This document shows positions 34,097 to 59,007 of a stretch of DNA of 64,000 nucleotides, piece by piece. Both the position numbers and the translations under genes were made by a program. The stretch is from Planctomycetota bacterium (GTDB taxonomy: Bacteria; Planctomycetota; SZUA-567; H5-PLA8): positions 24,862-88,861 of the forward strand of contig JAHCJK010000001.1 of assembly GCA_026184295.1 (NCBI GenBank), read 5' to 3'. The notes below the pieces were generated by a model. That model saw nothing but the letters and a program-made list of their open reading frames with translations, was not told the DNA's origin and made no database searches. Every line of letters starts with the position of its first letter. Position 1 is the stretch's first letter.

Positions 34097-35223
34097 GCGC
34101 CGGCCCTCCGCACCTTGTACGTGATCAGCGGCCGCAGCTTTGCGACCACGCGCACCAGGCCCGCCTCGACCAGGTCGCCCACCACGGCCTCGATCTTCTT
34201 GTACGCCTGCGGGGCTTCCTCGTAGAGCAATTCGCGGTCCTCGCAGATCACGCGGCTCCCAAGCTCGGTGCGCACGAGATCGTCCTCGCCGTAGCGTTCG
34301 CGCAGCCGCGCGCGGCAGTCGCTGCGGTTCCACTTGCGCCCGGCCCCGTGCGCGACGCTGCGCGCGTTGGCCTCCTGCGGCCCGGCCGGTTCCACCAGGT
34401 AGCTGAAACTCCCGCGGTTGCCCGGCACCACCAGCGCGCCCCGATTCGACGGATTCGCGCCCTTGCGGTGAATCCAGGCCGCGCATCCGCCGAGGGTTTC
34501 GCGCGCGACGAAGTTGTGCGGCAGGTCCAGCGCCACGCGCGCCTCCGAACCCAGCGCATGCAGGAACCGCCACGCGATCAGCGCGCGGCTGGCCTGCGCC
34601 CAAGCCACGGCGTGATCGTGCCGCGCAATGTACGCGCGCGCGTCGTCGCCCGCCGCGTCCAGCCCGGCGTAACCGTGATTCGCCATGTGCCCGGCCAGGA
34701 CCTCGCGGCCGAGTCCGCGGGAACCGCTGTGCACCAGCAGGACCAGACGGTCCTCGTCGAGCCCCAGCGCGGCGAAGGCGGCGCGGTCTTCGACGTCCTC
34801 CACCTGCTGGAGTTCCGCGAAGTGATTGCCGCCGCCGATGGTCCCGAGCGATTCGTCCTGATCGCCCGGGGCGAGGTCAAACTGCGCGAGCCACCCGGCG
34901 CGGTCGCCGTCCCAAGGGCGGTCGAGGTCCACGAGCCGGCGTTCCCAGCGCTCGAACTTCGGCTTGCGCGCGCTCAGGTCCGAGGCCCACAGGCCCATCC
35001 CGCAGCCGACGTCATTGCCGATCAGGTGCGGATACAGCGTGTCCTCCGTGACGAACGCCGCGCCCACCGGGCCGCTCTTGCCCGGATGCAAATCCGGCAG
35101 GCCCACCGCCAGGCGCATGCCCGGCAGCGCGGCCGTGCCACGCAGTTGCGCGAGCGCGTTGCCTTCGATCCAATTCTTCTCCGATGCGAACACGCGAACG
35201 TTTCCAGCGTTCAGGTCGGTCAT
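34093..35223 (-). CDS. rtcB: RtcB-family RNA ligase (RtcB2 type, paired with prfH)
   Basis: RtcB motifs (PDLHPGKSGPVGAAF, GNDVGCGMG, HNAGR-like HGAGRKW). Start at MTDLNAG with upstream ggaggtgg RBS. Confidence 0.85.
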   Translation of the reverse strand: MTDLNAGNVRVFASEKNWIEGNALAQLRGTAALPGMRLAVGLPDLHPGKSGPVGAAFVTEDTLYPHLIGNDVGCGMGLWASDLSARKPKFERWERRLVDLDRPWDGDRAGWLAQFDLAPGDQDESLGTIGGGNHFAELQQVEDVEDRAAFAALGLDEDRLVLLVHSGSRGLGREVLAGHMANHGYAGLDAAGDDARAYIARHDHAVAWAQASRALIAWRFLHALGSEARVALDLPHNFVARETLGGCAAWIHRKGANPSNRGALVVPGNRGSFSYLVEPAGPQEANARSVAHGAGRKWNRSDCRARLRERYGEDDLVRTELGSRVICEDRELLYEEAPQAYKKIEAVVGDLVEAGLVRVVAKLRPLITYKVRRAGA

Positions 35224-50304: not shown

Positions 50305-50400
50305 CCCCTGACCCCTGAATCCTGATTCCTGACCCCTGCCGTTCGAAGCCGCTCCATCCCTTACCCCTAAATCCTGATCCCTGACCCCTGCCGTTCGAAG
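50305..50400. repeat. Heptamer-repeat arrays (two direct copies of ..cctga..cccctgccgttcgaag) overlapping the last codons of the GH4 gene
   Basis: cccctgacccctgaatcctgattcctgacccctgccgttcgaag ... cccctaaatcctgatccctgacccctgccgttcgaag. The GH4 C-terminal residues GSGIRI are encoded by the array. Confidence 0.75.
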
Positions 50401-51722
50401 TTCGGCAACCACTCCCGGTTCCGCTCGATCATCTCGGCCAGCATCGCGCGGGCGTCGGTGACGCGGCGGACGAGCGGGTCGCTGGCGAGCAGTCGCACGC
50501 AGCGTTCGAAGTCGCCCGTCAGCGCCGCCTCGATGCTCGCTTCCTGACGCAGGATGTGCGGGCGCACGATCGCGTCGAGCGCCGCCGGGAAGGGCTGGCC
50601 GATGGTCATGGGGTGCACGCCCAGGCGGTCCACGCGGCAGAGCGTCTCCAGGTTGGCCCGCGCGGGCAGCTCCGGAATCTGACCGACGTTCTCGACGTTG
50701 AGCGTCGTGACGTAGACTCCGTGGCCTTCCAGCGCGTCGATCATCTGAATTACCGGCGCATGCGTGTCGGGAATCGTCAGGCGCTCGGGCGCCTGGGTCA
50801 TGTGCAGCGTGCGTTCGCGTCCGCGCTCGCGCCCGCGGCGACGGTCCTCGATGGTCGTGCGCGCGATCCCGTAACGTTCCATCTCGGCCTTATCGGTGAT
50901 GAAGTGCGCGAAGTTTTCCACCATATGGCGGTCGCCGATGCCCGGCAGGTGCCCGTATTCCTTCCAGAGCGCGAAGCCCGCGCGCGTCCCGACGCCGATG
51001 TTCAGGTGGCTGTCGTGGCTCGCGCCGGCATCCTGCGCCGAAAGGTCGCTGCGGCAGAGCCCTCGCTCGCGCAGCATTTCGATGCCGTCGCGCCCGCCGA
51101 TCTTGAGCTGCAGGAGCCACGGGCAGTGGTCGATGCCCGCGGTGACGAACTGGACGTCGTGGGCGGGATCGTGCCCGAGCAGCCGCGCGAGGTAATCGAC
51201 GTGTTCGACGACGCCCTGGCAGAGCCCCGCGGCCTTGATGCGGGTGTGCTTGGTCACCGCGCGAGTCAGCGGCGAGAGCGGGTTCGAGAGATTCAGCAGC
51301 CAGGCGTGCGGGCAGTACTGTTCCATCTTCAGCCCGAGATCGACGAGCACCGGGACGTTGCGCAGCGCGCGCGACATGCCGCCGGGGCCGACGGTATCGC
51401 CGACGGTGTGGTAGATGCCGAACTTTTCGGGCACCTCCAGGTCCGCGCGCATCGCCTCCAGACCGCCGGTGGAGATCGTCAGCGAGACGTAGTCCGCGCC
51501 GTCAAGGGCCTCGCGAAGGTCCGTCGTGCGCGAAACCGCCACGCCGGACTTCAGGTGGCGCTTCAAGGCCAGCGCGAGCGCGAAGATCTCCTCCGCGGCG
51601 CGCGCGTCGGCGTCCATGACGACGACCGAATGCTCCTGGAAGGTGGGCGTCTTGAGCAGCCGCCCCAGAATGGAAGGCATCCAGAGGTAACTGCCGCCTC
51701 CGACGAACGCGATCTTGGCCAT
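50367..51722 (-). CDS. Glycoside hydrolase family 4 (NAD+/Mn2+-dependent glycosidase)
   Basis: N-terminal MAKIAFVGGGSYLW NAD-binding motif. GH4-typical length of 451 aa and internal Cys/His region. The 5' extension of ORF 50367..52529 is spurious. Confidence 0.8.
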   Translation of the reverse strand: MAKIAFVGGGSYLWMPSILGRLLKTPTFQEHSVVVMDADARAAEEIFALALALKRHLKSGVAVSRTTDLREALDGADYVSLTISTGGLEAMRADLEVPEKFGIYHTVGDTVGPGGMSRALRNVPVLVDLGLKMEQYCPHAWLLNLSNPLSPLTRAVTKHTRIKAAGLCQGVVEHVDYLARLLGHDPAHDVQFVTAGIDHCPWLLQLKIGGRDGIEMLRERGLCRSDLSAQDAGASHDSHLNIGVGTRAGFALWKEYGHLPGIGDRHMVENFAHFITDKAEMERYGIARTTIEDRRRGRERGRERTLHMTQAPERLTIPDTHAPVIQMIDALEGHGVYVTTLNVENVGQIPELPARANLETLCRVDRLGVHPMTIGQPFPAALDAIVRPHILRQEASIEAALTGDFERCVRLLASDPLVRRVTDARAMLAEMIERNREWLPNFERQGSGIRI

Positions 51723-51839: not shown

Positions 51840-52712
51840 ATGCGACGCTGGAATCCGCCGTGGGAGATCAAGCAGGCCTTCAAGGCCGGCCTCGCCGTCG
51901 TTCAGCATAAAAAGAAGGGCCGCCAGGGCACCGTCGGCCCGTGCACCTCCGCCGCGGACGAATGCTACGCCGTCGTCCAGGGCGACCTGGAAGGCTTCGA
52001 CGGCCGGCGCTGGGGCCCGATGCCGGCGCGTTCCCTGGCCTGGTTCCCACGCGACCGGCGCTACGGCATCCGCGCGCGCCTCGGCTACGCCGGCCCCGTG
52101 CGCATCGTCAGCATCCTCTTTAAGGCGCCGCCGGGCTTCGGAAGCGGCCTGCCGCGCGGCCCCGTGCGCCTGCCCGCGCCGTGGTGGCGGCGCTTCCTGG
52201 AACTCGAAGCAAGCTGCGACTACGACGAACGCGGCCAGCGCACGCTCGCCGTGGCCGACCTCGCCGCCTTCATCGAACGGCTCGCGCGCGCCCTCGCGCC
52301 CGGCCGCGCGCGTACGCTTCGCCGAAGCACCAAGCCGTCCGCCGCGAAACTCGCCGCCGCCGAACCCAGCCGCCCCGACACCGAAGCCGAATGGCTCGAA
52401 GCGTGGACGCGCGCCGAGGACGTGATCCGCGACCGCGCCGGCCAGGGCCTGACGGTGGACGAACTCGCCGAAGCCGTGCAAGTCTCCCCGACGCAGCTCC
52501 GCCGCGTCTTCCACGCCTCGCGCGGCCAATCGCCCAAGGCCGCCCTGACCGCCTGGCGCATCGACGAAGCCAAACGCCTGCTCGCGCAGGGCAGACTCAA
52601 CGTGACCCAGGTGGGGGAAGCCGTCGGCTTCGGCAGCCTGCCGAGGTTCTCCGCCGCCTTCAAAGCCGCGACCGGCCGTTCGCCCAGCGCGTTTGCTAGA
52701 AGCAGGGGGTAG
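51840..52712 (+). CDS. AraC-family transcriptional regulator (divergent from GH4)
   Basis: C-terminal AraC HTH (LTVDELAEAVQVSPTQLRRVFHASRGQSPKAALTAWRIDEAKRLL, VTQVGEAVGFGSLPRFSAAFKAATGRSP). Confidence 0.7.
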   Translation: MRRWNPPWEIKQAFKAGLAVVQHKKKGRQGTVGPCTSAADECYAVVQGDLEGFDGRRWGPMPARSLAWFPRDRRYGIRARLGYAGPVRIVSILFKAPPGFGSGLPRGPVRLPAPWWRRFLELEASCDYDERGQRTLAVADLAAFIERLARALAPGRARTLRRSTKPSAAKLAAAEPSRPDTEAEWLEAWTRAEDVIRDRAGQGLTVDELAEAVQVSPTQLRRVFHASRGQSPKAALTAWRIDEAKRLLAQGRLNVTQVGEAVGFGSLPRFSAAFKAATGRSPSAFARSRG

Positions 52713-52968: not shown

Positions 52969-54117
52969 ATGGCCCGCGACGTCTTCTCGGTGACCCTGGA
53001 CAGAAAGAGCGGGATACCGGCCTATCGGCAGGTCCAGGAGGAGTACCGCAACCGCATCCTCGGCGGCGTTTTTCCGGAAGGCATGGTCTTCCCGTCCGAA
53101 GGGGCCATGGCGCGGGAGCTGCGCCTGAACAAATTGACGCTGCGCCGGGCGATTCTCGAACTTGAGAAGGAAGGACTGGTCCGGAAGGCTCAGGGGCGGC
53201 CCACGCTGGTCAGCCAGCGTTCGGAGTGGGTGCAGACGCAGCGCAGGGCGGTCGTTTCCATCATGATCCCCGACGATGTCTTCGAGCCGTACAAGGAAGA
53301 ACTGCTGGGGCACCTCTGCCGGCACTGCGTGCGGCTGGGGATGGATGTGCGGGTATGCCGCGAGGCCGAGGCCGGGGCGTCCCTGGAAAGCATCCCGCAG
53401 AACGGCGTGGACGGCATCTTGACGTATCCTTCGCCGCGCCCCGAGTACGCGGCCAGGCTGGAAAAGGTGACGGTGCCGCTGCTGGTGTTCGAGATGCGCG
53501 AGGACATCCCCGGCCACGCGGATCGCGTGGTGGTGGACAACCTGAACGGGTACCGGCAGGCGCTGGAACACCTGAAGGCGCTGGGGCACCGCGAGATCTT
53601 CTACATTGGCGCGCTCGTCGGGCGGAAGAACCTGGACGGGACCATCCGGTACGCCATGCTGCGCAACACGCATTTCAACACGCTGTTTTTTCGCAGGGCG
53701 ATGGAAGACGCGGGCTTGGATGCCTCGCCGGAACGCTGTCTGGAGATGCCCTTTCAGCAGGAAGGCGCCGACGCGCTCATCCGGAAACTCATGGAGGCCC
53801 GGGAGCGCCCGACGGCCCTGATCGTTTTCAACGACGAGCTGGCGCAATTCGCGATACGCGCGCTGAACCGCCGGGGGCTCACCGTGCCGGACGATATCAG
53901 CGTGGTGGGCGGCGGGCGTTTTCCCGACGCCGTGGCGGAAACGAGGCTGGCCACGGTGGCGGTGGACCGCGACGAGATGGCCAGAACCGCGGCGCAGCGG
54001 ATGCATGAACGAATGAAAAACGGCGGCCTGGCCGGGCTGGTGATCGAGATCGCCACGCGCTTCGTAAACGGCGCGACCGTCGGGCCGGCGCCGAAGAGAC
54101 AGCCGGTTGAACCCTGA
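52969..54117 (+). CDS. GntR-HTH / LacI-type sugar-binding-domain regulator
   Basis: N-terminal GntR wHTH (PSEGAMARELRLNKLTLRRAILELEKEGLVRKAQGRPTLV) plus PBP-like domain. Confidence 0.75.
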   Translation: MARDVFSVTLDRKSGIPAYRQVQEEYRNRILGGVFPEGMVFPSEGAMARELRLNKLTLRRAILELEKEGLVRKAQGRPTLVSQRSEWVQTQRRAVVSIMIPDDVFEPYKEELLGHLCRHCVRLGMDVRVCREAEAGASLESIPQNGVDGILTYPSPRPEYAARLEKVTVPLLVFEMREDIPGHADRVVVDNLNGYRQALEHLKALGHREIFYIGALVGRKNLDGTIRYAMLRNTHFNTLFFRRAMEDAGLDASPERCLEMPFQQEGADALIRKLMEARERPTALIVFNDELAQFAIRALNRRGLTVPDDISVVGGGRFPDAVAETRLATVAVDRDEMARTAAQRMHERMKNGGLAGLVIEIATRFVNGATVGPAPKRQPVEP

Positions 54118-54134: not shown

Positions 54135-55748
54135 ATGGAGAACAGCATGAGACCTGAGCGCATGAGCAAGACCGCCGGCCGCCTGCCGGGCGCCGCCTTC
54201 GCCGCCTTCGCGGCGATCGTAGCCATCCTTGGCCTCGGCCGGCATCTGGCTGCCGCCGAGGCGCCTCCGCCCGGCGGCCCTTCGGCCCCGCCGGCGCTGG
54301 CGTTCGTGGAGGTGCCGGAGGCGCAGTCCGGCCTGACGCATGCGATGAACAGCGATCCCAAGCTCGGCGAGGTGAAATGGCCGTGGATGTCGCCGCTGGT
54401 GGACGTAAACAACGACGGACACCTTGATATCCAATGGTACGGCCATCACGGCGGCGGCGCGGGCGTCTGGCTCGGCAAGGGCAATGGTGTCTTCGAATTC
54501 GAAACGACCGGGTACTTTTCGCGATGGGTGTTCGGGGGCCGCGATCCGCTCTGGTGGGATGCGAACGGCGACGGGTTCATGGATGGCATCGGCACCGAGC
54601 ACGAACCCACGGGCAAGCTTTACTTGAACGACGGGACGGGCCACTGGAAGAAGACCGGCGTCGAACTCCTGGGCGTGCTCACCGACCTCGACGGCGACGG
54701 CCGCCACGACGACCTGCTCAAGCAGAATAAGGCGTACTCGGTGGAACCTCGGCCGCGCGATTGGGCCGGAAAAATCCCCGACAAGGTGGCGCTCAAGGAA
54801 CTCTGGGACGCCGAGAAGCTCGTGGGAGGCGTGGAAGGCCAGGACATGAAGGCGCACGCGGTCGGGTTCAGGACCTGCCATGCGGCCGACTTCGACCAGG
54901 ATGGCCGCAACGAACTCGTGCTCGGTTTCAGCGGGTGCAAACTCAAAGCGGCCTTTTCCTCGGCGGAGTACCAGCAATCCTGGCTGTTCGTCCGGGAGGC
55001 CGCCGGCTGGAAGGAAGTCGCCGCGGCCCGCGGCCTTCCCGCCGGCCCCGGGCACCGGTTCCTGCCCGAAGACGTGGATGCCGACGGCGACCTCGACCTC
55101 ATCGATCTTTGCACCGGCCAATGGCACGCGAACGACGGCAAAGGCACGTTCACGGTTTCCGATAAGCGCATCTTCGATCCGGAAAAGCGCAAAGGCAAAT
55201 TCCCCTTTGACGGCGATGGCGAGATGGAACTCCTGGACCTCGACAACAACGGGTATCGCGACCTCGTGCTTTCAAGCGACCACACCACTTCCAGCGGCGT
55301 GTTTCTCAACGCCGGGGGCGGGAAATTCGTCGAAGTCCCGGGCATTCGCATCAACCGCCGCGACCGAAAATTCGGCGACGTGGACGGAGATGGCGACCTG
55401 GACATGGTGGCGCAGAGCGCGGACGGCAAAAAGATGGTCCTCTTCCGGAACGAGACTTCCAACGCTGGGCTGTTCTTGAAGGTGACGCCCAAGGCGCCGG
55501 CCGAGGCGTCGTTGGGCTGCAAGATCTGGGTGTATCGCGCCGGCAAACTGAACGAGGCCTCCGCGCTGCTTCACTACCGCCAGATCTTCCTCCTGAATGC
55601 CCGCACGCGGGGCAACGTGATGGAGAACCGGATTCACCTGGGTCTGGGCCAGGAGCAGGCCGTCGATATTCGCGTCTGCTTCCCGTCCGGAGAAGTGCGG
55701 GACCTCCCGGGCGCCAAAGCCAAGACGGTGGTCGAAGCGAAGGAGTAA
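54135..55748 (+). CDS. Secreted FG-GAP repeat / ASPIC-UnbV family protein (paralog B)
   Basis: Collinear with 42201..43736 (LAFVEVPEAQSGLTHAMNSDPKLGEVKWPWMSPLVDVNNDGHLD, GHHGGGAGVWLGKGNG, DVDGDGDLDM). True start may be an internal Met (MSKTAG). Confidence 0.7.
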   Translation: MENSMRPERMSKTAGRLPGAAFAAFAAIVAILGLGRHLAAAEAPPPGGPSAPPALAFVEVPEAQSGLTHAMNSDPKLGEVKWPWMSPLVDVNNDGHLDIQWYGHHGGGAGVWLGKGNGVFEFETTGYFSRWVFGGRDPLWWDANGDGFMDGIGTEHEPTGKLYLNDGTGHWKKTGVELLGVLTDLDGDGRHDDLLKQNKAYSVEPRPRDWAGKIPDKVALKELWDAEKLVGGVEGQDMKAHAVGFRTCHAADFDQDGRNELVLGFSGCKLKAAFSSAEYQQSWLFVREAAGWKEVAAARGLPAGPGHRFLPEDVDADGDLDLIDLCTGQWHANDGKGTFTVSDKRIFDPEKRKGKFPFDGDGEMELLDLDNNGYRDLVLSSDHTTSSGVFLNAGGGKFVEVPGIRINRRDRKFGDVDGDGDLDMVAQSADGKKMVLFRNETSNAGLFLKVTPKAPAEASLGCKIWVYRAGKLNEASALLHYRQIFLLNARTRGNVMENRIHLGLGQEQAVDIRVCFPSGEVRDLPGAKAKTVVEAKE

Positions 55749-55759
55749 CAGGCAGGATA

Positions 55760-55888
55760 CAGCCATCGGGATACAGGATTCAGGATTCAGGATACAGGGG
55801 AGGAGCGGCTTCGCCGCTTTTCCCTTAAAGAAAAGGAGCAGCGCCACGCGCTGCTCCTCCCCTGATCCCTGAATCCTGACCCCTGCTG
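55760..55888. repeat. Heptamer-repeat hairpin element after FG-GAP paralog B
   Basis: gatacaggattcaggattcaggatacaggggaggagcggcttcgccgc ... gctcctcccctgatccctgaatcctgacccctg (inverted arrays). Confidence 0.75.
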
Positions 55889-56626
55889 TTACCGCCCCGA
55901 TTCCCCGCGGTCCACGCCGGTCTTGGTGCCGCGGACCATGAAGCGGGCCTTGGCGAAGTCGTACGCCAGGTCGTCCTTGCTCGCGTCGCGGTAGGTGCTG
56001 ATCAGCGCCCAGCGGTCCCGGCCGCTCTTGTTGGGGAAGCTGGCGTGCAGGGTCAGGTCGTGGAAGAAGATCGCGCCGCCTGCGCGCACGGGCGCGACGA
56101 TGGCCTTGCTCTCGTCCACGTCTTCGGGGCGCAGGCGGTTGTTGAAGCCGATGCCGTCGCTGTCCTGGCCGCCGTGGCTGGCGTGCTTCATGTGCGAACC
56201 GGGAATCAGCTTCAGGCAGCCGTTCTCGGGGCTCGCATCGTCGAGCGCGATCCAGACGGAAAACTTCGAGGTGCCCTTCCAGTAGGGCCAGTCCTGGTGC
56301 CAGGGCGAACCGAAATCGACGCCCGCGGACTTGTAGACGACCTTGTCGCTCCAGAATTCCAGGTTCGGGCCGACGCACTGTTCCAGCACGTCGAGCACGC
56401 GCGGATCGGCGTTCAGCTTCTTGAAGAAGTCGCTGTTGAGCGTGATGCCGACGAAGACGCCGTTGTCCTTGGGCACGTTGCCGTCCTTGTCCTTCGTGCG
56501 CTTCGAGTCGAGGATGCGGCGAATCTCCTGCTTGGCCGCCGCCATCTCCTCGCGCGTAAAAAGGTCTTCCACCAGCACGTAGCCATCGCGCGCAAACATC
56601 GTCTTGTAATCCGCCGCCACCAGCAT
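55889..56626 (-). CDS. Phytanoyl-CoA dioxygenase (PhyH) family oxygenase
   Basis: PWHQDWPYW ... IPGSH ... HDLTLHAS motifs. 245 aa. Confidence 0.75.
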   Translation of the reverse strand: MLVAADYKTMFARDGYVLVEDLFTREEMAAAKQEIRRILDSKRTKDKDGNVPKDNGVFVGITLNSDFFKKLNADPRVLDVLEQCVGPNLEFWSDKVVYKSAGVDFGSPWHQDWPYWKGTSKFSVWIALDDASPENGCLKLIPGSHMKHASHGGQDSDGIGFNNRLRPEDVDESKAIVAPVRAGGAIFFHDLTLHASFPNKSGRDRWALISTYRDASKDDLAYDFAKARFMVRGTKTGVDRGESGR

Positions 56627-56669
56627 GACCGGCTCCTTTCGAAGGTTTCCGCCCCGTCATCCCCCGGAA

Positions 56670-56683
56670 TGGGAACGTTCCCA
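56670..56683. promoter_or_regulatory. 14-bp perfect palindrome TGGGAACGTTCCCA (candidate LacI-family operator) about 44 bp upstream of the PhyH start
   Basis: gaatgggaacgttcccaat. The identical 19-mer recurs at 57762. Confidence 0.6.
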
Positions 56684-56708
56684 ATCCAATCCAAAATAAA
56701 TGGCCCGC

Positions 56709-57725
56709 CTAGGCCTGCGACGACGCCCGCGCGTACAGCATCCCGAGCACCTCGCGGGGCTGCGCCTTCGCGCGCCCGTCGCTCAGCCAGCGGTCGATCT
56801 CTTCCACGGCGATCTCGCCCATGCGCATGAACGGTTGCTCGTACGACGTGCACGCCGGATCGAGGTACCGCGGCGCCTCCAGGTCGTCGAAGGTGACCAC
56901 CTTCACGTCCGAACCGATGCGAATTCCGCGCGCCTTCAAGAACGCGTACGCCTGCAAGAGGCCCTCCTTGTGGCCCATCAGCAGGCCGTCGGGCGCATCC
57001 GCGCCGCCAAAGGCGTTCTCCAGCGCGGCCTGGACTTCGGCGCCGTGCATGTACGCCGCGCCGGCGTGCAGCGTCAGGTGCTGCGCGTCGAGGCCGAAGC
57101 TGCGCCAGGCCGCGCGGATGCCGTCGCCGAACGCGCCGTACTGGGCGCTCAGCCAGTCGAACGCGAGCACCCGCCGGCAGCCGCTCTGGACCAGATGCCC
57201 GCAGAGCGTCCGGCCCGCATGGGTGAAATCGGTCCAGGCGTACAGGTCGCGCGGGCGTTCCGGGTGCCGCCAGTTCACGCCGATCCAGGGGATGCGGTAC
57301 TTGTCGAGCAGTTCGAGGGTGGGGATGGGCATCGGGCCGAGCAGGAAGACCGCGCGCACGTACTTTTCGACCGCCAGGCGCCGCAGCGCTTCGCCGTCGT
57401 GGATGTTCTCGATGAAGATCTGCAGGTCGTAGCCGAGCCGCTTCGCGCCGCGCGCAATGCCTTCCAGTTTGGGAGCCGCGACGAGGCTGCTCAGCGCGCC
57501 GAACGACTGGTGGTCGGGCACCACGATGCCGAGCACGCGGTTCTCGCCCTTGCGCAGCGTCCGCGCGGCCGCGTTGGCGCGGTAGCGCATCGTCCGGGCG
57601 ATCGCGAGCACCCGCTCGCGCGTCGCCTCGCTTACGCTGCCGTTCCCGGAAAGCACGCGCGCTGCCGTGGACTTGCCGACCCCGGCGCGGCGGGCGATCT
57701 CGACGATGTTGGGCGCGCTCTGCAT
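56709..57725 (-). CDS. LacI-family transcriptional regulator
   Basis: N-terminal HTH IVEIARRAGVGKSTAARVLSG and PBP-like C-terminal domain. Start at MQSAPN. Confidence 0.8.
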   Translation of the reverse strand: MQSAPNIVEIARRAGVGKSTAARVLSGNGSVSEATRERVLAIARTMRYRANAAARTLRKGENRVLGIVVPDHQSFGALSSLVAAPKLEGIARGAKRLGYDLQIFIENIHDGEALRRLAVEKYVRAVFLLGPMPIPTLELLDKYRIPWIGVNWRHPERPRDLYAWTDFTHAGRTLCGHLVQSGCRRVLAFDWLSAQYGAFGDGIRAAWRSFGLDAQHLTLHAGAAYMHGAEVQAALENAFGGADAPDGLLMGHKEGLLQAYAFLKARGIRIGSDVKVVTFDDLEAPRYLDPACTSYEQPFMRMGEIAVEEIDRWLSDGRAKAQPREVLGMLYARASSQA

Positions 57726-57761
57726 GAAGGCTCCGGTGGTTCCACGGTTCCCTGTTCTGAA

Positions 57762-57775
57762 TGGGAACGTTCCCA
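57762..57775. promoter_or_regulatory. Second copy of palindrome TGGGAACGTTCCCA, about 37 bp upstream of the LacI regulator start (candidate autoregulatory operator)
   Basis: ctgaatgggaacgttcccaatatt. Confidence 0.6.
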
Positions 57776-57963
57776 ATATTAGCCCGGCGGGCCGCGCTGT
57801 CAACAGGTTCTTTTGCGATACCGGACGGCCGGGCGTGGAGGCCCGGTACCAGGGGTAGCGCGGATAGGCCAGTCCGAGAGGCCGGCACCCCGACCGCCTG
57901 CCATTGGCAAGATGTGAAATTTCGCTATCCTCCTGGGGTTCGGCAACCTCTCGAGGAGCCTTC

Positions 57964-59007
57964 ATGCCGTCATCCAATTCCGGCCAGATCACCACCATCG
58001 AACGCCACATCCTCGACCAGCAGCACCATTACCCGGATGCCAGCGGCGCGCTGACCAACCTGCTTTACGACCTGGCCCTGTGCGGCAAGATCATCGCCAG
58101 CAAGGTCATCCAGGCCGGCCTGATGGACGTGCTCGGCAAGACCGGGCTCCAGAACGTCCAGGGCGAGGAAGTGCAGAAACTCGACGAGTTCGCCGACGAG
58201 ACCATCTTCAAGCTCAACGACCACACCGGCCGCCTGGCCGTGATGGGCAGCGAAGAACACGACGAGATCATCCCGATCCCGAAGAAGTACAAGACCGGCA
58301 AGTACGTCCTGCTCTACGACCCGCTCGACGGTTCCTCGAACATCGACGTGAACGTGAGCGTCGGGTCGATCTTCGCGATCTTCAAACGCAAGTCGCCCGA
58401 AGGCACCCCCGGCACGCTGGAAGACGTGCTCCAGCCGGGCCGCGACCTCGTCGCCGCCGGCTACATCATCTACGGGTCGAGCACCATGCTGGTGTATTCG
58501 ACGGGGCAGGGCGTGCACGGCTTCACGCTCAACCGCATGCTCGGCGAGTTCCTCCTCTCGCACCCGAACATCCGCACGCCCGAAAAGCCCAAGTACTACA
58601 GCGTCAACCAGGCGTACGAACCCTACTGGAGCCCCGGCGTGCTGCGGTACGTGCGCTACCTCCAGACGGGCGAAGGCGAGCCCGAAAAGCTGGGGCTCTC
58701 GCTGCGCTACATCGGTTCGCTGGTCGCGGATTTCCACCGCAACCTGCTCAACGGGGGGCTCTTCTGCTACCCGGCCGACCGCAAGGATCCCAAGAAGCCC
58801 GGCGGCAAGCTGCGCCTGCTGTACGAGGCCGCGCCGCTCGCGTTTCTGGCCGAACAGGCCGGCGGCGCCGCCACCGACGGGCGCCAGCGCATCCTCGACA
58901 TCGCGCCGGCCTCGCTGCATCAGCGCGTGCCGCTGTACATCGGCGACAAGAAACTCTGCGAGAAGGCCGAGCAGTACATCCAGAAATACGACGGGGCGGG
59001 CGCGTGA
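57964..59007 (+). CDS. fbp: Fructose-1,6-bisphosphatase class I
   Basis: Strong family similarity throughout ([59 protein letters not shown]). Confidence 0.9.

Follow-up and report, generated by a model that had tools for sequence, protein, structure and literature searches.

Two copies of a perfect 14-bp palindrome flank the gene for a LacI-family regulator in the stretch of Planctomycetota DNA analysed here (64 kb of contig JAHCJK010000001.1, hereafter the window), and we consider it very probable that both are operators of the repressor encoded between them. The two sites, designated O1 and O2, are part of a compact arrangement that reads, on the minus strand, promoter, O1, lacI, O2, phyH, the last gene encoding an oxygenase of the PhyH type. 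Comparative sequence analysis supports the view of this locus as a local LacI-family regulon of the usual autoregulated type; it is new for Planctomycetota, and its oxygenase target is unusual. To our knowledge, almost no transcription-factor sites are known in this phylum, for which the present comparison would provide a well-supported assignment of operator, promoter and repressor.

The duplicated palindrome and its conservation

The 19-mer GAATGGGAACGTTCCCAAT occurs exactly twice in the window, both times on the plus strand, and its core is the perfect palindrome TGGGAACGTTCCCA (Table 1). When up to three mismatches to the 19-mer were allowed, 0.01 copies were expected from 100 dinucleotide-preserving shuffles, none of which reached four matches. 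The window yielded no third instance of the 14-bp core when as many as two mismatches were tolerated; the remaining matches to it, at 35193 and 56470, carry three mismatches each and stand at chance level (2.7 expected), for which reason they were rejected as weak additional operators. Being self-complementary at 14 of 14 positions, even in length and centred on CG, the sequence TGGGAAC/GTTCCCA has the canonical form of a LacI/GalR-family operator (PMC4052901). The near edge of O1 lies 36 nt from the lacI ATG (57725), and O2 sits between the lacI stop codon (56709-56711) and the phyH ATG (56626), 43 nt ahead of the latter. These positions bear out a preliminary description of the stretch, which had reported an identical 19-mer pair about 1.1 kb apart, with one copy about 37 bp upstream of the LacI-family gene and the other between the stop of that gene and the PhyH start, and had taken a 14-bp palindrome with a central CG to fit a LacI/GalR dimer operator. 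Its two gene calls were likewise upheld by the domains of the encoded products.

Table 1. Position and assignment of the features of the lacI-phyH locus in the window
Feature	Position	Strand	Assignment or description	Basis or detail
O1	57762-57775 (19-mer 57759-57777)		putative operator at lacI promoter	sequence, chance expectation, conservation, -10 adjacency
O2	56670-56683 (19-mer 56667-56685)		putative operator controlling phyH, within 82-nt lacI-phyH spacer	conservation, moves with phyH
lacI promoter	57776-57803	-	predicted sigma70-type promoter	-35 TTGACA 57803-57798, 16-nt spacer, -10 TAATAT 57781-57776
lacI	56709-57725	-	338 aa	PF00356 and PF13377
T-rich tract	56693-56701	-	ATTTATTTT	9 nt upstream of O2; position conserved
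phyH	55889-56626	-	245 aa; Fe(II)/2-oxoglutarate oxygenase family	PF05721, E 4e-37
fbp	57964-59007	divergent from lacI	class I fructose-1,6-bisphosphatase	

A protein search retrieved, together with the source protein from the Planctomycetota metagenome-assembled genome (MAG), a tight clade of 17 relatives with 47-72% identity, the next match lying at 31%. The set used for phylogenetic footprinting, composed of the window, the loci fetched from assemblies and the species-representative loci L012-L020, covers 14 distinct Planctomycetota lineages and 220,780 bases, with a LacI identity of 49-72% across the lineages. All 14 carry lacI followed on the same strand by an orthologous phyH (52-80% identity), and all 14 keep the palindrome at both the O1 and the O2 position, in promoter or leader DNA whose bases flanking the sites have diverged. 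O1 is exact in 13 of them, and O2 is exact in eight and differs by one mismatch in the other six, TGGGAACGATCCCA being the commonest variant. Altogether, the 220,780 bases contain 21 exact and 8 one-mismatch matches against 0.035 expected, all of them at O1 or O2 positions, and no match with two mismatches (0.7 expected). The flank positions nearest the palindrome lean to aT...A(t), so that the consensus extends to a palindrome of 16-18 bp. The 29th match is a tandem second O1 in L020, the lineage with the most divergent orthologue (49% identity), where two one-mismatch palindromes 15 bp apart (TGGGAACGATCCCA ct GGGAACGGTCCCA) stand at the lacI promoter (2358-2386).

The same counts bear on the reading that the pair arose by chance duplication or belongs to a dispersed repeat without regulatory meaning, such as a repetitive extragenic palindromic (REP) element or a miniature inverted-repeat transposable element (MITE). 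The fact that the window copies share 19 nt rather than 14 could suggest copying; against it stand the expectation of 0.01 copies and the positional conservation in 14 lineages with diverged flanks, which leave this reading a practically negligible probability. The palindrome is not abundant irrespective of gene context, a possibility that the preliminary description had raised against its own proposal: there are two copies in 64 kb and, in the 221 kb of loci from 14 lineages, none outside the expected positions, and the dispersed repeat was rejected on this ground.

Recognition helix and palindrome across phyla

The lacI product unites a LacI-type helix-turn-helix domain (PF00356, residues 7-51, E 4e-14), with the recognition helix GKSTAAR, and a periplasmic-binding-protein-like effector domain (PF13377, residues 177-336, E 2.5e-18), and it has a leucine, Leu57, in the hinge. 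The residues K18, S19, T20, A22 and R23 of the recognition helix and A54, L57 and R58 of the hinge are invariant in the clade. Leu57 stands within NAAARTLRKG, invariant in 15 orthologues and aligned with the hinge of 5YSZ. In PurR and LacI, Leu54 and Leu56, respectively, insert at the central CpG, and we take Leu57 to be their equivalent from knowledge of the family hinge rather than from a residue-level alignment. The closest solved structures are LacI-family repressors that share the hinge sequence N-AARTL; the best match among them, 5YSZ (E 1.6e-17), was deposited as 'LacI family' and has the recognition helix GRGTVSR, as against GKSTAAR in the window protein. We presume this structure to be the CelR of Thermobifida fusca.

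Beyond the orthologues, genomes were scanned with the recognition-helix pattern AGV[GS]KST[ATV]AR and one effector-domain peptide pattern. The scan yielded 71 relatives of 25-32% identity in Alpha- and Betaproteobacteria, Actinobacteria and Chloroflexota (Devosia, Ensifer, Pelagibacterium, Caballeronia, Paraburkholderia, Sinomonas, relatives of Arthrobacter and a Chloroflexota MAG), and every one of the 71 has the helix AGVSKST[AV]AR. With up to two mismatches, the palindrome lies no more than 250 bp upstream of the gene in 52 of these relatives, typically as TGGTAACGTTCCCA, and 34-83 nt past the stop codon in 59. By comparison, four relatives of similar identity with other helices (STATVSR, SHQTVSR, SVATAAR and AKATAAR) had no site in 25 kb, so that motif and helix covary, within a control sample that is small (four loci). 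The distant loci contain another 16 matches elsewhere in 1.04 Mb, several of them clustered by other operons. Taken together, the data suggest that the palindrome goes with the DNA-reading helix, whatever the effector domain and the target genes may be, and this co-occurrence, observed directly like the sequence, position and conservation of the sites, appears to be the strongest computational evidence that this protein binds this site. The pair formed by GKSTAAR and TGGGAACGTTCCCA recurs in five or more phyla, combined with different effector domains and different targets, and such reuse of helix and operator helps the transfer of regulon predictions.

The loci of Devosia, Ensifer, Pelagibacterium, Caballeronia and Paraburkholderia resemble the window in the helix, in the palindrome and in the layout, with one site before the regulator gene and one after it; they differ in the low identity of the regulator, in the downstream genes and, in Alphaproteobacteria, in the intragenic location of the second site. 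The downstream genes encode ATP-binding cassette (ABC) permeases and a solute-binding protein in Pelagibacterium, and a major facilitator superfamily (MFS) transporter, an ADP-ribosylglycohydrolase and a PfkB kinase in Caballeronia. In the alphaproteobacterial relatives the next gene, with its Shine-Dalgarno sequence and ATG, comes 3 nt after the lacI stop, and the intragenic palindrome is always read in the G-N-V-P-K frame within an otherwise variable N-terminus; it may therefore be regarded, on sequence grounds, as an intragenic operator in an apparent operon. The palindrome was located about 47 nt inside an ABC-transporter permease gene in L072, L073, L033 and other loci of Ensifer, Pelagibacterium and Devosia. 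Three loci of Sinomonas and its relatives (L045, L056 and L069) showed clusters of two to three near-perfect palindromes 6-8 kb downstream of the lacI homologue, which suggests the existence of remote target operons in those genomes.

These comparisons also bear on which local protein would bind the sites. The palindrome might be read by another regulator encoded nearby, either of the AraC family (51840-52712) or a hybrid of a GntR-type helix-turn-helix and a sugar-binding domain (52969-54117), and many of the orthologous loci do have an AraC-family gene as a conserved neighbour. However, both palindromes persist in L009 and L011, which have no AraC gene, and in the loci without the GntR hybrid, which occurs in the window only; the distant loci share the LacI homologue only and still carry the motif. 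AraC-family sites are, moreover, usually direct repeats and not CG-centred palindromes. We consider binding by either of these regulators to be scarcely credible.

The operator sequence has a counterpart in Actinobacteria, since TGGGAACGTTCCCA is the in silico consensus of CebR2, a LacI-family protein that regulates a second cello-oligosaccharide cluster of Streptomyces scabiei, and the consensus given for CebR1 in the same work is TGGGACGCGTCCCA (PMC9953190). The sequence TGGGAGCGCTCCCA was found in nine other papers on CebR and cellulose utilisation. Like the window pair, the operators of the cello-oligosaccharide repressors CebR, CebR2 and CelR of Streptomyces and Thermobifida measure 14 bp, are palindromic around a CG and have TGGGA/TCCCA as their outer half-sites. 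The window protein is only weakly similar to these repressors, and, in contrast to their systems, the target here is a PhyH-type oxygenase instead of a cellobiose ABC transporter and a beta-glucosidase, and the phylum is Planctomycetota. Orthology to CebR or CelR was rejected: no close homologue from Actinobacteria was retrieved, identity does not exceed 31% outside the Planctomycetota clade, there are no ceb-like genes at the locus, and the operator sequence alone matches.

Control of lacI and phyH from the two sites

The predicted lacI promoter matches the sigma70 consensus at 10 of 12 positions, with 0.2 promoter-like sites expected in the region, and its -10 hexamer ends exactly at the start of O1. 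All 14 lineages repeat this arrangement, with a TTGAC-like -35 box, a spacer of 16-17 nt and a TAnnnT-like -10 box that ends within one base of the O1 start. If transcription starts about 7 nt past the -10 box, O1 should extend from about -6 to +8, where repressors that act by occlusion classically bind. Since O1 abuts the -10 box in every lineage, it would cover the transcription start of lacI, and the autoregulation that had been proposed from the upstream copy gains support from this arrangement of sequences.

O2 appears to be tied to phyH. The distance from the end of O2 to the phyH ATG is 22-86 nt across the lineages, and two of these provide a natural displacement: L013 and L016 have a distant PhyH paralogue (33-34% identity) inserted between lacI and the orthologous phyH, and O2 is found in them not behind lacI but behind the paralogue, 22 and 36 nt before the orthologous phyH begins. 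Because O2 tracks the 5' end of phyH despite the inserted gene, phyH is probably the target, in agreement with the role first suggested for the PhyH oxygenase gene. The inserted paralogues (9084-9680 in L013 and 9070-9681 in L016) lie upstream of O2 and would be controlled by O1 only.

Neither a weighted -35/-10 search nor column conservation lent support to a separate sigma70 promoter for phyH, none of the 14 lineages showing a recognisable -35/-10 pair at O2; a TAnnnT hexamer occupies positions -10 to -5 of O2 in five to six of them. What does recur ahead of O2 is the T-rich tract. Counted from O2, positions -17 to -10 hold T in 10-12 of the 14 lineages, and a run of at least five T lies within -25 to -5 of O2 in 11 and at O1 in one; among 21-nt background windows, 1.1% contain such a run. 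In L013 and L016 the tract is found beside the displaced O2, and four Burkholderiaceae relatives likewise have it ahead of their downstream site. It could serve as a site where RNA polymerase stalls or is released, as a promoter element or as a terminator tail, and the data leave these roles side by side. A terminator-like hairpin before the tract, sought by folding of the lacI 3' end and a hairpin-plus-T scan, was detected in three to four of the 14 lineages, clean in L016 and weak in the window, so that termination was rejected as a general explanation of the palindromes and the T-tract.

A related reading would have the palindromes act in RNA, as hairpins involved in termination, processing or mRNA stability, rather than as protein-binding DNA. 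The sequence can form a hairpin of 5-7 bp, O2 stands between co-directional genes, and a weak terminator-like hairpin with a T-run lies just upstream of it (56715-56702). Nevertheless, O1 is located upstream of or at the transcription start, beside the -10 box; neither palindrome is followed by a T-run, as an intrinsic terminator would be, since the tract precedes O2; and no relevant Rfam family matched. Furthermore, it is the sequence itself that is invariant, with no compensatory change in 28 sites, and the motif tracks the recognition helix of the regulator across phyla. An action in RNA is accordingly very unlikely.

We envisage two manners in which O2 could control phyH, and they are about equally likely. 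The first supposes a weak promoter without a -35 box whose start point would be covered by O2, and it fits two Caballeronia loci in which the T-tract falls in the spacer of a plausible TTGCGG-17-TAGTTT promoter. Alternatively, lacI and phyH might form one operon in which O2 is a roadblock to read-through, with the stalled polymerase on the T-tract. The roadblock is suggested by the lack of a promoter at O2, by the short spacers (56-96 nt), by the intragenic operators of the alphaproteobacterial relatives and by the precedent of the lac operators, since repressor bound to lac O3 and O1 blocks transcripts from the lacI promoter (PMC3711431); roadblock termination is largely Mfd-dependent (PMC4132739). 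The clean terminator hairpin just before O2 in L016 counts against it.

A more specific form of the roadblock can be put forward tentatively, as a possibility that we hold to be on the unlikely side. The lacI-phyH operon would be transcribed from the O1 promoter alone, and O2, together with the T-tract at -17 to -10, would form a stop gated by the repressor: the repressor bound at O2 would stall the polymerase with its RNA-DNA hybrid on a U-rich stretch, from which the transcript would be easily released. The regulator would then be made without the oxygenase, and the inducer would open both gates. This proposal draws on the lack of an O2 promoter in 14 lineages, on the fixed distance between T-tract and O2, kept also in Burkholderiaceae, and on the operator inside an alphaproteobacterial operon gene. 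Whether the module of O2 and T-tract is a protein-gated terminator is a question of wider interest.

On the interpretation of both palindromes as operators of the LacI-family protein, a repressor dimer would read two TGGGA half-sites through its helix-turn-helix, with GKSTAAR as recognition helix, while the hinge helices would insert Leu57 at the central CpG. Bound to O1, the repressor would mask the start of lacI transcription and thereby keep its own gene repressed; bound to O2, it would shut off phyH, either by occlusion of a weak promoter without a -35 box or as a roadblock within a lacI-phyH operon. A small-molecule effector, probably sugar-like or the substrate of the oxygenase, would free the repressor from both sites.

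The two sites could also cooperate by a DNA loop held by a tetrameric repressor, as occurs among lac O1, O2 and O3. Such a loop would need two sites on the same DNA, and the window offers an identical, presumably high-affinity pair about 1.1 kb apart; the E. coli LacI does loop between its operators (PMC3711431). On the other hand, the distance between the centres of O1 and O2 varies from 1068 to 1809 bp among lineages and does not preserve helical phase. The protein, moreover, stops at residue 338, level with the ends of PurR and CcpA, and its alignment with these dimeric proteins revealed no C-terminal extension like the tetramerisation helix of LacI. Since neither spacing nor phase is conserved and the C-terminal extension is lacking, O1 and O2 probably act separately, and looping is improbable.

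Several considerations weigh against the operator assignment and the model built upon it. We infer repressor binding and repression from the sites and their conservation, as we do the dimeric state, the effector and the mode of action at O2, and with regard to binding and expression this counts as a reservation. The 14 lineages are related, so that their counts are not fully independent, and the distant set was drawn mainly by the helix pattern, so that it tests whether the same helix goes with the same site and is not an unbiased sample of the family. Without a promoter at O2, the manner of phyH repression is not established. The scans cover the window and 221 kb, and the regulator may have a role beyond the locus, including at the often adjacent fbp gene. 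Finally, in a family whose groups with an assigned pathway act on carbohydrate metabolism in 96% of cases, it is unusual for the only local target to be an oxygenase of the PhyH type.

Known LacI-family systems and neighbouring genes

The survey of LacI-family regulons in RegPrecise (Ravcheev et al. 2014) found even palindromes in 1251 of 1303 motifs, 1173 with a central CG, autoregulation in 72% of the regulators and more than 75% of the sites 30-140 bp before the start codon, and carbohydrate metabolism was the controlled process in 96% of the groups to which a pathway had been assigned; Planctomycetes or Planctomycetota are absent from its text (PMC4052901). Local regulons of this type are small, adjacent to the regulator and autoregulated, and the window locus fits every one of these norms except the target. 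The lacI-lacZYA region of E. coli is comparable in that the operators O3 and O1 are likewise placed past the regulator gene and on the strand of the structural genes, and the roadblock exerted there serves as precedent for that reading of O2. It differs in that lacI of E. coli has no operator at its own promoter and is autoregulated by the O3 roadblock, whereas lacI of the window has O1; likewise, the E. coli repressor is a looping tetramer, and lacZYA, unlike phyH, has its own strong CRP-dependent promoter.

The phyH product is, judged from its sequence, an Fe(II)/2-oxoglutarate oxygenase, in which the iron ligands His110-x-Asp112 and the distal His194 are present. Its best matches are remote (SnoN, EvdO2, CytC3, leucine hydroxylase and ectoine hydroxylase, E 1e-15 to 1e-11), and it scored far under every NCBIfam cut-off; with only remote matches in PDB and NCBIfam, a substrate is not assignable. 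In other lineages fbp is often divergent upstream of lacI, and an AraC-family gene, sometimes a Rieske oxygenase gene and a GH4 glycosidase gene often follow downstream. These neighbours, together with a sugar-phosphate isomerase-like gene in one lineage, suggest by inference a carbohydrate-related pathway. The conserved PhyH-type oxygenase would then be an inducible product of a probably sugar-related pathway beside fbp, the AraC regulator and the GH4 glycosidase. As a direct target of O1, fbp was not supported: it adjoins lacI in some lineages only, and in the window O1 lies about 130 bp from the promoter-like site of fbp.

The window shares this synteny. The AraC-family gene (51840-52712, plus strand) is divergent from the GH4 gene (50367-51716, minus strand), and both are conserved neighbours of lacI-phyH, in some lineages with a Rieske oxygenase gene in between; neither gene carries the palindrome. 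The GH4 glycosidase is 62-79% identical among lineages, with an alpha-galactosidase family, under its cut-off, as best NCBIfam match. Relative to the synteny of the other lineages, the window alone has an insertion between AraC and phyH, formed by the gene of the GntR/LacI-type sugar-binding hybrid regulator (52969-54117, plus strand) and, after it, that of an FG-GAP/ASPIC-repeat protein (54135-55748, plus strand). Between the convergent FG-GAP and phyH genes lies a 36-nt imperfect inverted repeat (55774-55885), 83% complementary and with CAGGATT/CAGGATA heptamers, for which a search of Rfam gave sub-threshold chance matches to miRNA families only. It encloses a perfect 11-bp hairpin (55834-55858) and is probably a bidirectional terminator.

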